This document shows positions 2,528 to 31,482 of a stretch of DNA of 32,000 bases, piece by piece. Source of the stretch: Candidatus Methylomirabilis limnetica (lineage in GTDB: Bacteria; Methylomirabilota; Methylomirabilia; Methylomirabilales; Methylomirabilaceae); assembly GCF_003044035.1 (NCBI RefSeq), contig NZ_NVQC01000024.1, forward strand, positions 30,001-62,000. Direction: 5' to 3'. A program made the position numbers and the translations under genes. Numbering within the stretch: position 1 is the stretch's first letter; every line of letters begins with the position of its first letter. The notes under the pieces were generated by a model. The model saw only the letters and a program-made list of their open reading frames with translations, did no database searches and was not told the origin of the DNA.

Positions 2528-2581
2528 GTGTAGCTGTAGATAGACTGAAGGCTGATCGCTAACCGCTGACGGCCGTGTGTC

Positions 2582-4429: not shown

Positions 4430-4562
4430 CCCCCTCACCTTCATCCTCTCCCTCCCCGCTGGGGGGAGAGGAGATTTTATTATTATCCCTCGCCTCTGGG
4501 TGCGGAGCCGCGTCTTTTTTTACCCCTCGCCCCCCGCTGGGGGAGAGGGTGCGGGTGAGGGG
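4430..4562. repeat. Two inverted copies of a G/C-rich hairpin element flanking an AT-rich core (family member c)
   Basis: Copy 1 (4430-4473) is CCCCCTCACCTTCATCCTCTCCCTCCCCGCTGGGGGGAGAGGAG. The reverse complement of copy 2 (4523-4562) is CCCCTCACCCGCACCCTCTCCCCCAGCGGGGGGCGAGGGG. Each copy also folds on itself. The element abuts the thiC stop (4565). Confidence 0.55.
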
Positions 4563-4564
4563 AA

Positions 4565-5956
<1,392 letters not shown>

Positions 5957-5967
5957 TCAACCTTTTC

Positions 5968-6056
5968 AGGATGCTCCCTACGCTGGCATGACCCAGATCA
6001 GGTCCGACGGTCGACGACGGTTTCTGTCGCCCTCTCAGCCTGCTCCCGCAGACTCC
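5968..6056 (-). promoter_or_regulatory. TPP (THI-box) riboswitch aptamer
   Basis: The minus strand reads ...GCGGGAGCAGGCUGAGAGGGCGACAGAAACCGUCGUCGACCGUCGGACCUGAUCUGGGUCAUGCCAGCGUAGGGAGC. It contains the invariant CUGAGA and ACCUGAUCUGG-N-AUGCCAGCGUAGGGA blocks, directly 5' of thiC. Confidence 0.9.
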
Positions 6057-6124
6057 CGTACCCGCTTCCTATTGTTTTCTAATCTACCCCCAATCAACAG
6101 GGGTGTCAAGAATCCACCAAAAGA

Positions 6125-6307
6125 TGGTCTATCTGGTCTATTTGGTCTGTCTGGTCTGTCTGGTCTATTTGGTCTGGGACGAGAAAGACGGAATAGACCA
6201 GAAGGACGGAATAGACCGAAGATGGTCTATCTGGTCTTTCTGGTCCTTCTGGTCATTTGGTCGGTGACGAGATAGACGAAATAGACGGAACAGACCGAAT
6301 AGACCAA
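6125..6307. repeat. Family A intergenic element, copy A1: two consecutive hairpin units built from 9-nt TGGTCTRTY repeats and their complements
   Basis: The first unit has six phased 9-mers (6125-6178), then GACGAGAAAGACGGAATAGACCAGAAGGACGGAATAGACCG. The second has four or five more 9-mers, the core TTTGGTCGGTGACGAG, then GATAGACGAAATAGACGGAACAGACCGAATAGACCA. The element ends 2 nt from the rmuC stop codon. Confidence 0.85.
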
Positions 6308-7697: not shown

Positions 7698-7733
7698 ATT
7701 GAGTTCCCTAGAAAATGTCTAACTGGTCTATCT

Positions 7734-7874
7734 GGTCATTTGGTCTGTTTGGTCTGTTTGGTCTATTTGGTCTGTTTGGTCGGTGACGGAGTAGACGAAA
7801 TGATCCGCTGTCGATTTGGTCGGTGACGAGATGGACGAGATAGACCAAATAGACCAGATAGACGAAATAGACCC
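7734..7874. repeat. Family A intergenic element, copy A2
   Basis: Seven phased TGGTCNNTY units. The core TTTGGTCGGTGACG is present twice (7786-7799 and 7826-7839). These are followed by GATAGACCAAATAGACCAGATAGACGAAATAGACC. It lies between the rmuC start and the rtcB stop. Confidence 0.85.
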
Positions 7875-7893
7875 AAGCCGGCCCATGCGGTCA

Positions 7894-12643: not shown

Positions 12644-12975
12644 CGGCGCGGTTTGCCTCTGGACTCAACGTCTCCGCCTGCCTGTTGCGTGCCTATACCG
12701 TCGATCTGTTTGAGGAGAGCAATCGCACTCAGTTCGTAGCTATGGCGCGCCTGCTCATAGTCTTCGAGACTGAGCCTCCCAGCCTGGTAATCGAACTCAA
12801 GCTCCTTGATTGCGGCATATACCATTTGCTTCTCGGCCAGGAGCTCCTGCAACTCGGTCTGTTCTGACCACAGTGGAACTCCATTAGACGATCTGAAGAA
12901 CGGCATGATTACCGGCAAGAGGGCGAGAAGAACTAGCAGGATGATAATTAGTATTAACATTATGGTTGGGTTCAA
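12640..12975 (-). CDS. Membrane-anchored CcmI-like N-terminal domain protein (no TPR region)
   Basis: N-terminal TM helix, then ELQELLAEKQMVYAAIKELEFDYQAGRLSLEDYEQAR. This resembles the CcmI/CycH N-terminal segment (…ELERDLAEG-L-xxEY…). The track start is a TTG at 12975, and an ATG at 12960 is an alternative. Its stop overlaps the mqnE ATG (ATGA). Confidence 0.4.
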   Translation of the reverse strand: MNPTIMLILIIILLVLLALLPVIMPFFRSSNGVPLWSEQTELQELLAEKQMVYAAIKELEFDYQAGRLSLEDYEQARHSYELSAIALLKQIDGIGTQQAGGDVESRGKPRR

Positions 12976-13095
12976 CGTTCAATGTTCAACGTTCAACGTT
13001 GCACCCCGAACATTGCACGTTGAACATTGCACTTTGAACGTTGCACGTTGAACATTGCACTTTGAACGTTGCACGTTGAACATTGAACGTTGAAC
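12970..13095. repeat. Family B element B1: 18 in-phase heptamers (4 x GTTCAAY followed by 14 x NTTGMAC), including a 28-nt higher-order repeat
   Basis: 126 nt equals 18 x 7, read directly. GTTCAAC is the reverse complement of GTTGAAC, so the first four units can pair with any later GTTGAAC unit. GTTGAACATTGCACTTTGAACGTTGCAC occurs at 13019-13046 and again at 13047-13074. Confidence 0.85.
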
Positions 13096-13107
13096 TTTCT
13101 ATGATCA

Positions 13108-13611: not shown

Positions 13612-13653
13612 AAGGAACTCTGAACTTTGAACCTTGAACGTTGAACGTTGAAC
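13612..13653. repeat. Family B element B2: six in-phase NNNGAAC heptamers (AAGGAAC TCTGAAC TTTGAAC CTTGAAC GTTGAAC GTTGAAC)
   Basis: Read directly. It has the same unit and orientation as B1 and lies between the ccmH start and the ccmG stop. Confidence 0.7.
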
Positions 13654-13658
13654 GCAGA

Positions 13659-20899: not shown

Positions 20900-21024
20900 A
20901 GTAGTACAGGGTAGAGGGTTGAGGGTATAGGGTTTAGAGTGCAGGGAAAGGACGGGAGCACAACTTATTCATACTTCTTTTCTCCTATCTTATCCTCTAC
21001 CCTCTACCCTATAGCCTATACGCT
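20900..21024. repeat. Family D element: 7 in-phase NNAGGGT heptamers, a core of about 35 nt, then about 6 complementary CTACCCT-type heptamers
   Basis: The left arm (20906-20954) is ACAGGGT AGAGGGT TGAGGGT ATAGGGT TTAGAGT GCAGGGA AAGGACG. The right arm (20990-21024) is TTATCCT CTACCCT CTACCCT ATAGCCT ATACGCT. It lies between the lpd stop and the lipB start. Confidence 0.8.
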
Positions 21025-22504: not shown

Positions 22505-22600
22505 TCCCCCCCCCCATCCTCACCTTCCCCCTCATGGGGGGGAAGGGACCCCTTACGCGACCTCCTCCCCCCTTGAGGGGGAGGATTGAGGTGGGGGGTA
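22505..22600. repeat. G/C-rich post-stop element, family member d (two hairpins)
   Basis: The first hairpin is CCTTCCCCCTCATGGGGGGGAAGG (22523-22546). The second is CCTCCCCCCTTGAGGGGGAGG (22564-22583), followed by ATTGAGGTGGGGGG. The element lies between the E2 stop (22630) and the lpd start (22443). Confidence 0.55.
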
Positions 22601-23868: not shown

Positions 23869-23894
23869 TGTGCGTATGTCTCCTCTTCTTATTT

Positions 23895-24023
23895 TGGTCT
23901 ATTTCGTCTATCTGGTCTATTTCGTCTATCTGGTCTATTTCGTCTATCTGGTCTGTTTGGTCTATCTGGTCTGTTTGGTCTGTGACGAAATAGACTGAAT
24001 AGACGAGAAGGACGGAATAGACC
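23895..24023. repeat. Family A intergenic element, copy A3 (asymmetric: 10 left-arm units and about 4 right-arm units)
   Basis: (TGGTCTATT TCGTCTATC) x3, then TGGTCTGTT TGGTCTATC TGGTCTGTT TGGTCTGTG, then ACGAAATAGACTGAATAGACGAGAAGGACGGAATAGACC. It fills the whole pdhB-E2 spacer, and its right end overlaps the pdhB stop codon. Confidence 0.85.
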
Positions 24024-26920: not shown

Positions 26921-27158
26921 AAATGCCTCATTTGAGCCCGTATAAGTGATCAGTCAGGCCGCCGTTTGGGAAGGCGGCACACAGGCCTACTCGCCAATTC
27001 TTCTACCATAGTCTTGACCCGATTGTCAACCTGAGAAGGACGCAGTTCACCTGATCTGGACGATCACCCGCCGCTCACGTGGACCGTCAAACTCCACGAG
27101 CATCAGGCTCTGTCAGGTTCCCAGCACCAGTCTCCTGCCGTCTTGACGAAGAACTCTT

Positions 27159-28955: not shown

Positions 28956-29125
28956 CTCGACCTCATCTTCCGAAAAGCCCTTGCTCCGGTAGATCTAGCG
29001 CATAAAGACGACCTCGCGAACGGCTCGTCCCTTCGGAGAATGCCAACTCTCCTCGATTGCAGCACTCCCGGCGCTAGCCTCGTTCATTGCCGCGCCACTC
29101 GGGAGGGGTCCGCACGCCAAACCTC

Positions 29126-29704: not shown

Positions 29705-30166
29705 CTACCAGTCAGCGTGGAGGTCAGGCCGCTGCTTCAGCGCCTCCGCTAGTGGCGTCATCAGGCGATCCTTTCCGTACACGAAGCCGCCCCTGTTGTA
29801 GGAGGCAAGCTCGTACTGTTTCCCCAGCACAATCGCCTCCTCCGGGCAGGCCTCCTCACAGTAGCCGCAAAAGATGCAGCGCAGCATATGGATCTTGTAC
29901 ACCTTCGCGTAGCGCTCACCCCTGGAGTGACGCTCTTGCTCGGTGTTCTCGGCTGCCTCAACATAGATCGCATCGGCAGGACAGGCGACGGCGCACAGTT
30001 CACAGCCCACACACCGCTCCATCCCGTCCTCTCCCACCACGAGCATGTGCAGACCACGGTAGCGAGGCGCAAGCGGTAGCCGCTCTTCCGGATAGGAGAC
30101 CGTCACCGGCTTCCGGAAGATATGCTTGAATGTCGTCGCCAGCCCCTTGAGAATCTCGCCAATCAT
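29705..30166 (-). CDS. nuoI: NADH-quinone oxidoreductase subunit I-like 2x[4Fe-4S] ferredoxin
   Basis: N-terminus MIGEILKGLATTFKHIFRKPVTVSYPEE, plus CVGCELCAVACP and CIFCGYCEEACP. I prefer the ATG at 30166, because the track extension runs into repeat element C1. Confidence 0.8.
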   Translation of the reverse strand: MIGEILKGLATTFKHIFRKPVTVSYPEERLPLAPRYRGLHMLVVGEDGMERCVGCELCAVACPADAIYVEAAENTEQERHSRGERYAKVYKIHMLRCIFCGYCEEACPEEAIVLGKQYELASYNRGGFVYGKDRLMTPLAEALKQRPDLHADW

Positions 30167-30184
30167 CGTCGCCACCCTTGACGC

Positions 30185-30347
30185 GTAACTACTCAGGTGT
30201 TTAGACTGAAGGCTGAAGACTGAAGGTTCTAAATTGCCTCGCAAGGCACGAGTCGAGCCATTCAAGACCTTTTCGGAGTTTTATATGATCACGCATGACT
30301 TACCCCTAAAAGCCTTCAGCCTTCAGCCTATCTACCTGAGTAGCTAC
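30185..30347. mobile_element. Family C MITE-like element C1: imperfect terminal inverted repeats of about 40 bp containing CTGAAGR heptamers, an 85-bp core, flanked by the 8-bp direct repeat CTTGACGC
   Basis: The left end is GTAACTACTCAGGTGTTTAGACTGAAGGCTGAAGACTGAAGG. The reverse complement of the right end is GTAGCTACTCAGGTAGATAGGCTGAAGGCTGAAGGC, matching about 31 of the first 37 positions. CTTGACGC occurs at 30177-30184 and again at 30348-30355, immediately outside both ends. Confidence 0.65.
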
Positions 30348-30371
30348 CTTGACGCAACACGCGCGACTTCC

Positions 30372-30917
30372 CTATGCCGTCCTTCGCCAAGGGAGGTGGA
30401 AGAGGCCCTGGCTGCTCGGCCGTTCCTTGGCGATCTTTTCCTGCAACAGCATGATCCCATGGATCAGCTGCTCCGGCCTGGGCGGGCAGCCGGGAACATA
30501 GACATCCACCGGAACAACCTGATCCACACCCTGAACGATGGTATAGGTGTTGAAGATTCCGCCGCAGGAGGCACACGCGCCCATGGCGATCACCCACTTT
30601 GGCTCAGGCATCTGATCGTAGATCCGTCTCAGGACTGGGGCCATCTTGCGGCTCACGCGGCCGGCCACAATCATCAGGTCGGACTGACGTGGCGACCCAC
30701 GAAAGACCTCCGCCCCGAATCTGGCAAGATCGAAACGCGACGCGCCCGTTGCCATCATCTCAATAGCACAGCAGGCAAGCCCGAAGCTCGCCGGCCAGAT
30801 CGACGACTTCCTCGCCCAATTGATCAGGCTATCCAGGGTTGTGAGGAGGAGGCCCCGCTCAAATTCCTCCGCTTCGGCCTTGGAGGGCAGGATGTCGTTC
30901 TCCGTCAACTGAAGCAT
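30372..30917 (-). CDS. nuoB: NADH-quinone oxidoreductase subunit B-like (N2 cluster subunit)
   Basis: [20 protein letters not shown] and VPGCPPRPE supply all four cluster cysteines. The protein is 181 aa. Confidence 0.85.
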
Positions 30918-30930
30918 ACGATGTATCCTC

Positions 30931-31078
30931 GTAACTACTTAGGTGTTCAGGCTGAAGGTTGAAGGTGATGCATTATCTCGCACAGCACAAATCAAATGCC
31001 AGAAGTTTTTTGCGATCACTGCTTTATACCTAACAGCCTTCAGTCTTCAGCCTTCAGTCTATCTACCTGAATTGTGAC
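30931..31078. repeat. Family C element C2 (more diverged copy, same orientation as C1, no flanking duplication seen)
   Basis: The left end is GTAACTACTTAGGTGTTCAGGCTGAAGGTTGAAGG. The reverse complement of the right end is GTCACAATTCAGGTAGATAGACTGAAGGCTGAAGACTGAAGG. The core is unrelated to the C1 core. Confidence 0.6.
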
Positions 31079-31080
31079 AA

Positions 31081-31383
31081 TCAGCAACCACAGTCCGCCT
31101 TCGGGTTGGGGTTCTTCAGGCTGAAGCCGGCCCCCTGTAAGCCGTCGATATAGTCGATCTCGGAGCCGGCCAGGTAGGTGTAGCTCTGCGGGTCCACCAG
31201 GACCTTGACACCGTTCGTCTCGAAGACTTGATCGGCCGCCTGGGGGTGGTCGAACTCCATCTCGTAGGAGAGGCCGGAGCAGCCACCGCCGATGACGCGG
31301 ACGCGCAAGCCTTCTTCAGAATTCTCCTGCGTCTTGAGCAAATCAGCCACTTTCGTTGCAGCCGACTCGGTAAGGGTAATCAT
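31081..31383 (-). CDS. erpA: Iron-sulfur cluster insertion protein of the A-type carrier family (IscA/ErpA/HesB)
   Basis: MITLTESAATKV..., GGGCSGLSY, and the C-terminal CGC motif. The ATG at 31383 is preceded by AAGGAGG. Confidence 0.8.
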   Translation of the reverse strand: MITLTESAATKVADLLKTQENSEEGLRVRVIGGGCSGLSYEMEFDHPQAADQVFETNGVKVLVDPQSYTYLAGSEIDYIDGLQGAGFSLKNPNPKADCGC

Positions 31384-31482
31384 TGGGACCTCCTTATTAT
31401 TGAGAGCTTTTGGTCGACGCCTCGGCTCCTCGCGAAGAGCTCGTGCCGTTAGCTCACACGAACTATGGCACACCTTCGACAC

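Follow-up and report, generated by a model that had tools for sequence, protein, structure and literature searches.

Bacterial MITEs (miniature inverted-repeat transposable elements) and mobile insertion cassettes, among them MITEAba12, MIC231 and the Correia/NEMIS elements, are small, multicopy, intergenic and hairpin forming. They carry terminal repeats and a target duplication, encode no transposase and presumably rely on a related insertion sequence (IS). Here we describe C1, a 163-bp element that resembles them in each of these respects and lies between a nuoB-like and a nuoI-like gene of Candidatus Methylomirabilis limnetica, in a stretch of 32,000 nucleotides (contig NZ_NVQC01000024.1, positions 30,001 to 62,000) that was analyzed as a whole and is referred to as the window. 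We consider it very likely that C1 is a nonautonomous MITE derived from a cassette with a PF05635 gene and ISBst12-type ends, mobilized in trans and possibly active as RNA in place. C1 connects the ISBst12 (IS66) transposases, a group that is common but little studied, the large and enigmatic PF05635 family, which is related to the Avd protein of diversity-generating retroelements (DGRs), and the unexplained tandem-repeat hairpins of many environmental genomes. The C1 family differs from typical MITEs in that its parent, as judged from the present data, is not an IS minus its transposase gene but a cassette whose passenger gene is constant; its stems are built of tandem heptamers, and it spans several phyla. 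Correia elements are further set apart by their duplication, which is TA and not 8 bp.

The ends of C1 are most like those of the ISBst12 group of the IS66 family. A member of this group, ISDge4 of Deinococcus geothermalis, encodes one 449-amino-acid (aa) transposase, has the ends GTGACTACTCAGCA and GTAACTGCTCAGCA, generates an 8-bp direct repeat and has been observed to transpose (PMC12898284; copy data in PMC8369957). Like C1, the ISBst12-group ISs compared here (ISBst12, ISDge4, an element on plasmid pHTA426, and the environmental relatives P0063, P0198 and P0218) have GTWWCTRYTCAGG-form ends and an 8-bp duplication. Unlike C1, they are 1.57 to 1.67 kb long and carry one DDE_Tnp_IS66 transposase of 485 to 506 aa, whereas C1 encodes no transposase in its 163 bp and has an interior of heptamer stems and stubs of an unrelated small gene.

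The gene content of the parent cassette leads to a second described system, the S23p-type intervening sequence (IVS) of 23S rRNA, known from Coxiella burnetii, Leptospira and others. In the C. burnetii IVS, tandem GACAGAT heptamers in variable number precede the S23p ATG and are accompanied by a flanking stem; the IVS is excised by RNase III, and its origin has been called unclear, with transposition only hypothesized (PMC4990558). The parent cassette shares with these IVSs a PF05635 gene, an inverted-repeat stem, heptamers between the stem and the ATG, selfish-element behavior and a patchy distribution. C1 itself resembles them in its tandem heptamers and in the stem formed by its flanking inverted repeats, but it has lost the open reading frame (ORF) and lies between nuoB and nuoI, not in helix 25 or 45 of 23S rRNA; having no ORF and not being in rRNA, C1 is ruled out as an rRNA IVS. 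The parent is like IVSs in its gene, stem and heptamers; the GTAACTAYTCAGG ends and 8-bp duplications are features of the cassettes, and RNase III excision has been shown for the Coxiella IVS only.

Two further systems are more distant. Repetitive extragenic palindromic (REP) elements, bacterial interspersed mosaic elements (BIMEs) and REPINs are, like C1, intergenic hairpins inside operons, but REP elements have no such terminal repeats and no target duplication and depend on a Y1 transposase (REP-associated tyrosine transposase [RAYT]). We rejected a REP/REPIN identity for C1, which has the 8-bp duplication and no RAYT-like gene in the flanks examined. The passenger protein of the cassettes is a distant homolog of DGR Avd. 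Unlike the cassettes, DGRs contain a reverse transcriptase gene and template/variable repeats, neither of which was seen beside the cassettes in the flanks examined.

Structure and strain polymorphism of C1

The 8-mer CTTGACGC occurs only twice in the window, and the two copies abut the two ends of C1 (Table 1); the probability that two given 8-mers match by chance is 4^-8, or approximately 1.5e-5. C1 starts with GTAACTACTCAGGT and finishes with the reverse complement of GTAGCTACTCAGGT. Its 14-nucleotide (nt) terminal inverted repeats match at 13 of 14 positions, and by way of CTGAAGG/CCTTCAG heptamers the inverted repeat reaches 37 nt at 84% complementarity. The direct duplication and terminal inverted repeats described in the initial annotation are thus confirmed. 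The direct repeat can also be read as 9 bp, since its terminal inverted repeat neighbor ends in a C (base 30347) that is identical to base 30176; we set its length at 8 bp because a nested insertion of a sister element (flanked by AAGCAGTG) and 45 other copies fix this value. Along the minus strand, the nuoB stop codon is followed by 16 nt, GCGTCAAG, C1, GCGTCAAG, 10 nt and the nuoI ATG.

No transposase gene is encoded within or beside C1. Its ORF content consists of two stubs of a 126-aa gene that are out of frame with each other, and C1 is therefore noncoding. In sum, C1 is short (less than approximately 500 bp), lacks a transposase, has terminal repeats, a duplication of fixed length and empty sites, and occurs in multiple copies, which is the full set of structural features by which a MITE is recognized.

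Table 1. Positions of C1, its component parts, neighboring genes and related copies in the window
Feature	Position	Strand	Remarks
Target-site duplication, nuoI-proximal	30177..30184	.	CTTGACGC (GCGTCAAG on gene strand); 10 nt upstream of nuoI ATG; single in empty alleles
C1, 163-bp noncoding MITE	30185..30347	-	Sense set by ORF stubs and by left (IRL) and right (IRR) inverted-repeat end types; same strand as nuoB and nuoI
IRL-type terminal inverted repeat	30334..30347	-	GTAGCTACTCAGGT on minus strand, then AGATAG inward
IRR-type terminal inverted repeat	30185..30198	+	GTAACTACTCAGGT, then GTTTAG inward; 14/14 identical to ISBst12-type left ends in L247/L248 and L250
Tandem heptamers, CTGAAGG type, 3 units	30206..30226	+	One inner-stem arm
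Complementary tandem heptamers, CCTTCAG type	30311..30329	+	Opposite inner-stem arm
N-terminal stub of PF05635 four-helix-bundle ORF	30276..30296	-	ATGCGTGATCATATAAAACTC = MRDHIKL
C-terminal coding-end stub of PF05635 ORF	30229..30275	-	CGAAAAGGTCTTGAATGGCTCGACTCGTGCCTTGCGAGG...; out of frame with N-terminal stub; alignment A1, L097, L088
Target-site duplication, nuoB-proximal	30348..30355	.	16 nt after nuoB stop
nuoB-like gene (PF01058), upstream of insertion	30372..30917	-	
nuoI-like 2x[4Fe-4S] ferredoxin gene, downstream of insertion	29705..30166	-	Ribosome-binding region kept intact by duplication
C2, older sister copy, 148 bp	30931..31078	-	Between iscA-like gene and nuoB; one decayed end GTCACAATTCAGGT; no duplication
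Truncated remnant of a third copy	2530..2555	+	GTAGCT..GTAGATAGACTGAAGGCTGA, directly after GATCATGT

We retrieved eight contigs that encode an identical NuoB (L numbers are our handles for contigs and loci). The nuoB-nuoI site is filled in three of them (L001, L003 and L005), with a 205-nt spacer as in the window, and empty in four (L002, L004, L006 and L008), where a 34-nt spacer reading ...GTGTTGCGTCAAGGGTGGCGACGATG contains the 8-mer once and no element. The difference of 171 nt equals the 163 bp of C1 plus 8, and the 900 nt flanking the site are identical between filled and empty alleles; one empty contig (L004) shares 99.93% identity with the window across 6.2 kb. An outgroup is provided by contig L037 of the metagenome-assembled genome (MAG) "Ca. 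Methylomirabilis sp. bin48," which is collinear with the window, itself Candidatus Methylomirabilis sequence, at approximately 92% identity. In bin48, the nuoB-nuoI site is also empty, while the sister copy C2, present in all strains, is there as well. It follows that C2 is old and that C1 was acquired only once the two species had separated. The site of C1 is still polymorphic among near-identical strains. The empty sites anticipated in the initial annotation thus exist in four contigs of near-identical strains and in the sister species.

A second, independent insertion is younger than C2. In contig L003, a 168-bp family member (4815-4982) is nested in C2 in reverse orientation, with AAGCAGTG on both sides; C2 is uninterrupted in the remaining contigs and in the window. 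The closest relatives of this nested copy, at 92 to 95% identity, are L108 and a copy in Methylomirabilis bin48 (L056). This insertion, with its duplication, shows an active family in the population. The third of the copies or remnants of C1-type elements in the window, the truncated one in Table 1, is orthologous to an intact 246-bp bin48 copy (L088, 4213-4458, with the duplication GATCATGT); in the lineage of the window, most of the element and approximately 50 nt of its flank have been deleted. Filled alleles, empty alleles, the nested insertion and the empty site in the outgroup agree on a MITE family that is active at the population level in an uncultured nitrite-dependent methane oxidizer. 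Insertions of this kind serve as markers of strain-level variation and fragment short-read assemblies.

Filled and empty alleles are each found on two local haplotypes. Recombination must also take place, or else precise loss between the 8-bp repeats. It is nevertheless improbable that C1 is old and immobile and that all of the polymorphism stems from precise, hairpin-promoted deletion by the host between the 8-bp repeats. Long palindromes between short direct repeats are established deletion hot spots, and this account would fit the distribution of alleles over haplotypes as well as the decay of copies seen in C2 and in the remnant at 2530-2555. It is contradicted by bin48, which is empty at the C1 site yet shares the older C2, and by the new insertion of a different family member, with its own 8-bp duplication, in one strain only. 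The nearly perfect repeats of C1 and its 900-nt flanks, which are the same as those of the empty alleles, likewise speak for recent insertion of C1.

The comparison with bin48 (L037) also showed two stretches missing from the window, 277 nt at 27136/27137 and approximately 515 nt at 28960-29004. Both are apparently coding and may represent lineage-specific deletions or gene decay.

The parent cassette and its relatives

Many ends of the family continue inward as ...ATGCGAGATCACACAAAGCTCAGAGCATTTGAA; at L062, this sequence is the start of an ORF of 126 aa, which extends into the opposite stem. The encoded protein matches PF05635 ("23S rRNA-intervening sequence protein"; E = 7.5e-31) and TIGR02436 ("four helix bundle protein"); its matches to bAvd (E = 1.8e-4) and DivGenRetAVD (E = 3.7e-6) are weak and below the curated cutoffs. 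PF05635 proteins were first encountered within 23S rRNA IVSs. A metagenome scan with the L062 protein yielded 80 loci. Gene-bearing cassettes at L143, L166, L172 and L181 are 444 to 463 bp long, share the family ends and have perfect 8-bp duplications, and a further cassette (L097) is broken by a small nested hairpin element. The parent has a passenger gene enclosed by IS-type inverted repeats and a duplication, encodes no transposase and so fits the definition of a mobile insertion cassette.

In alignment A1, which comprises C1, C2, L031, L088 and the copy nested in L003, every element has kept both stems and the first and last 20 to 50 nt of the ORF; C1 retains 21 nt of the 5' end and approximately 47 nt of the 3' end. 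The breakpoint of the internal deletion differs in each of these copies. Because both ends of the ORF are kept and the breakpoints differ, we conclude that C1 is an internal-deletion derivative of the approximately 445-bp cassette. Stubs of the ORF were found by tblastn at approximately 25 loci, and ORF-less derivatives far outnumber gene-bearing copies.

Complementary tandem heptamer arrays (CTGAAGG, CTGTAGG or CTATAGG) bracket nearly all of the 80 four-helix-bundle genes, even where the outer repeat has decayed, and cyanobacterial plasmid homologs of the gene are bracketed by GCTAAAA/GCCAAAA arrays. One such homolog (L233; Pseudanabaena galeata plasmid pPg_01, 46268-46627) sits in the same orientation between cas6 and cas4, with approximately 15 GCTAAAA repeats upstream and approximately 10 GCCAAAA repeats downstream. 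Elsewhere, the arms are expanded to approximately 8 units of 14 to 16 nt on each side of the gene (L184, approximately 4860-5500) or to at least 7 consecutive CTGAAGG units (L086, 1-154), which is consistent with slippage in the arms.

A scan of species-representative genomes for the end pattern matched at least 120 stretches. Among the matches listed, the hosts are MAGs of Desulfobacterales and other Thermodesulfobacteriota, Nitrospirota, Methylomirabilis, Nitrospinota, anammox Planctomycetota, Desantisbacteria and others. Pairing of the ends gave 93 elements of 83 to 320 bp, with a mode near 170 bp. A duplication-guided search of all loci recovered 45 elements with perfect 8-bp duplications, from several phyla, compared with 0 in a shifted-flank control, and other copies therefore bear out the duplication seen at C1. 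A search of the same kind for elements of up to 6 kb found none larger than 483 bp. The duplications are AT rich (69%), with a weak G-A-T...A-T-T tendency.

The outer approximately 28 nt of the elements are conserved between lineages, while the cores differ. The 14-nt terminal inverted repeat has the consensus GTAACTAYTCAGGT, and the two ends are asymmetric, one reading ...AGGT(G/A)GATAG and the other ...AGGTGTTTAG. Both ends could be typed in 17 of 45 oriented copies; each of these has one IRL-type and one IRR-type end, and a same-type pair was found in none. No copies were present in the viral contigs searched for the ends. An element-like end pair without a duplication was noted in a MAG labeled "archaeon" (L067, 6290-6477); it may reflect a binning error or a cross-domain copy.

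The literature searched contains no description of PF05635 cassettes with inverted repeats and target duplications, no link of such cassettes to MITEs or to IS66/ISBst12, and no occurrence of the C1 terminal sequence. The descent of C1 from an IVS-type four-helix-bundle cassette with ISBst12-type ends is newly found, and it suggests how the long-puzzling PF05635 23S IVS-type cassettes move. None of the approximately 200 loci shows a 23S rRNA signature; the copies lie between protein-coding genes. A bolder extension, against which we lean slightly, is that the S23p-type 23S rRNA IVSs are themselves such cassettes: nonautonomous elements with ISBst12/IS66-type ends and 8-bp duplications that insert into any transcribed DNA. 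The heptamer stem and Avd-like gene would then form a conserved module that lives off host transcripts, the rRNA copies would be those that landed in tolerant loops, and the other tandem-repeat hairpins of the genome could be ORF-less relatives from sister lineages. If true for genuine rRNA IVSs, this would answer how they arose and spread, a question open since about 1990.

Insertion sequences with matching ends

Against seven ISBst12-type elements, the ends of C1 match at 10 to 14 of 14 positions, compared with only 3 to 4 of 14 for the canonical IS66 end (GTAAGCGTGTCA..., GTAAGCG...). Canonical IS66 elements (Leptospira, Enterococcus), whose ends begin GTAAGCG... and are not of the C1 type, were accordingly rejected as the source. 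The ISBst12-type element on Geobacillus kaustophilus plasmid pHTA426 (ISGka4 family) has the ends GTATCTATTCAGCCC and GTAACTATTCAGCCC (GTAWCTATTCAGCCC), a duplication of GACGAGTT and a single 485-aa "IS66-like ... transposase" (DDE_Tnp_IS66). Environmental relatives found with this transposase carry PF03050, PF13005 and PF20042; they match the C1 ends at 10 to 12 of 14 positions and have 8-bp duplications. Examples are P0027 (end GTAACTATTCAG.., duplication ATAAAAAG), P0067 (end GTAACTGCTCAGCC), P0079 (end GTAACTATTCAGGC) and the 1,571-bp P0063 (ends GTATCTACTCAGGC and GTTACTACTCAGGC, duplication CTTTTTTC), whose left end agrees with C1 at 21 of 30 bases. Two elements have left ends identical to the C1 end at 14 of 14 positions: the 1,633-bp P0218 (L250; left end GTAACTACTCAGGT, duplication CTGGTAAA) and P0198 (L247/L248; flanked by GTTTCATC). 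At L237 to L241, copies of the same 1,571-bp ISBst12-type IS have shuffled left and right flanks (CTTTTTTC, AACCATTC and AAATACAC), as is typical of a multicopy IS chimerically joined by assemblers.

Because they share both the ends and the length of the duplication, we group the cassette and the MITEs derived from it with ISBst12-type elements. An IS with the termini of C1, for which the initial annotation had advised looking, is thus available in ISBst12-group elements of the IS66 family, none of which was found in Methylomirabilis sequence or near any copy; MAGs usually lose insertion sequences. The original reading of C1 as a MITE-like insertion of the transposase type, with an 8-bp duplication and no transposase of its own, is in turn supported by the empty sites, the other copies and these IS ends.

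In the sequence of events that we propose, a cassette of approximately 445 bp, with 14-nt terminal repeats, subterminal pairing heptamers and one PF05635/TIGR02436 gene, gave rise to C1 by internal deletion. An ISBst12-type transposase encoded elsewhere would then have bound both repeats, cut the target with an 8-bp stagger and inserted C1. The insertion took place 16 nt past the nuoB stop codon and 18 nt ahead of the nuoI start codon; it duplicated GCGTCAAG and spared the nuoI ribosome-binding region. Mobilization in trans by such a transposase is the best-supported mechanism, as inferred from sequence.

Several observations weigh against this mechanism. Its basis is confined to the ends and the duplication length. 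The two ISs with 14/14 ends come from soil and sediment, their right ends are slightly different (GTAACTGCTCAGGC and GTATCTACTCAGGC), and their subterminal sequence has no heptamer arrays. An ISBst12-type transposase is absent from the window and from 1.26 Mb around the approximately 200 copies, as judged by clustering of the ORFs from these loci, Pfam searches of the recurrent clusters, a scan for IS66 motifs and tblastn with an ISBst12 transposase; the genes that recur beside the copies are housekeeping genes only. Nor was any ISBst12-type transposase tied to Methylomirabilis in the sequences examined. As filled and empty alleles each occupy two haplotypes, some empty sites may also be precise losses or recombinants rather than ancestral.

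One alternative, as improbable in our view as the deletion account above, is that the cassettes move by a mechanism of their own that needs the four-helix-bundle (Avd-like) protein, for example by way of RNase III-released RNA copied by a host reverse transcriptase, with ISBst12-like ends that are convergent or borrowed. Such a mechanism would suit a family in which the largest perfectly duplicated unit is the approximately 445-bp cassette, no transposase lies near approximately 200 copies, the passenger gene is the same across phyla and its product weakly matches bAvd and DGR Avd, and the gene-bearing copies are strictly co-oriented with host transcription. The IVS ORF was proposed as a mobility component by Ralph and McClelland (cited in PMC4990558). 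Terminal inverted repeats with a fixed 8-bp duplication are, however, the signature of DDE transposition, and the ends resemble those of a known transposase family at up to 14 of 14 positions, with a duplication of equal length. No reverse transcriptase gene was seen beside the cassettes, and ORF-less derivatives still insert, although these could be served in trans.

A further alternative is a transposase from outside the ISBst12 group. Several IS families, including ISL3, IS256, IS1595, IS6 and IS1, make 8-bp duplications, and a partner was not found in this genome; mobilization of C1 by one of these families is nonetheless highly improbable, as their ends typically begin with GG or GA motifs and those of C1 fit ISBst12-type ISs at 10 to 14 of 14 positions. 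Finally, the notion that the 8-bp match is coincidental and the hairpin a locally evolved regulatory or REP-like structure, although C1 resembles REP/BIME hairpins in its operon spacer and lacks coding capacity, is refuted by the exact empty sites, the nested insertion, the 45 versus 0 duplications and the cross-phylum copies with variable cores and conserved ends, and can be set aside almost entirely.

Potential effects on the transcript and other repeats in the window

C1 lies in sense orientation within an apparent single transcription unit (iscA-like gene, nuoB and nuoI), and its co-transcription is therefore expected. As RNA of the gene strand, C1 folds at -81.6 kcal/mol (z = -6.65 relative to shuffled sequences), with a predicted structure in which a 3x3 internal loop separates a 14-bp helix from a 20-bp helix. 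C1 has no intrinsic terminator or terminator-like T-run. We propose that C1 would be transcribed together with nuoB and nuoI and form a hairpin in the transcript, where it could act as an RNase III site or an mRNA-stability site.

Gene-bearing cassettes are oriented with their surroundings: the gene upstream shares their strand in 47 cases and lies on the opposite one in 12, and for the gene downstream these numbers are 52 and 11, respectively. In 31 cases both neighbors share the strand of the cassette, and in 0 both oppose it. By analogy with the rRNA IVS (PMC4990558), and given this co-orientation, the hairpin probably acts on the mRNA, either by way of RNase III cleavage or by protecting the 3' end. 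We counted the stability of the C1 hairpin and the 31 versus 0 co-orientation as support for an effect on RNA. On the other side, a small sample of ORF-less copies has no clear orientation bias, the strand bias of G·U over A·C pairs is weak (163 versus 130; p = 0.06), and the difference in folding between sense and antisense strands is confounded by coding composition. Because these tests of RNA selection are weak or confounded, the effect on RNA remains inferred. More generally, long hairpins placed inside operons such as nuoB-nuoI may affect mRNA processing.

The window contains other hairpin arrays, which the initial annotation had suggested to be older, decayed insertions. Arrays of 9-mers at 6125-6306, 7717-7876 and 23893-24022, with tandem TGGTCTATY and GACSRRATA arms, are situated in the spacers near rtcB, rmuC and thiC and behind an E2-type gene. 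Three other contigs carry the two arrays around rmuC unchanged; within the third array, short-read contigs break off. Arrays of 7-mers (GTTCAAC/GTTGAAC; GGGTAGA/TCTACCC) are found at 12970-13098, 13621-13654 and 20905-21013. Neither the 9-mer arrays nor the 7-mer arrays at 12970-13098 and 20905-21013 show a C1-type inverted repeat, a flanking duplication or polymorphism, and the suggestion of decayed insertions is not supported for them. Tandem-repeat stems are an intrinsic hallmark of the PF05635 cassette family.

An inverted-repeat family of a different kind, rich in C runs and G runs (CCCCTCACC...GGGGAGAGG), is present at 4431-4562 and 22510-22598, with arms of approximately 32 nt and 76 to 78% complementarity. 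The nuoB-like and nuoI-like genes that flank C1 stand alone behind iscA/HesB-like and B12/radical-SAM genes (29705-31482); no other nuo genes lie near this region, an arrangement that is unusual for complex I subunits. An Rfam scan of the window reported a thiamine pyrophosphate (TPP) riboswitch alone, and none in C1. The riboswitch (RF00059; 56 bits) is located at 5958-6069 on the minus strand, upstream of the ThiC gene (4565-5941), and is itself directly preceded by a double tandem-repeat hairpin.

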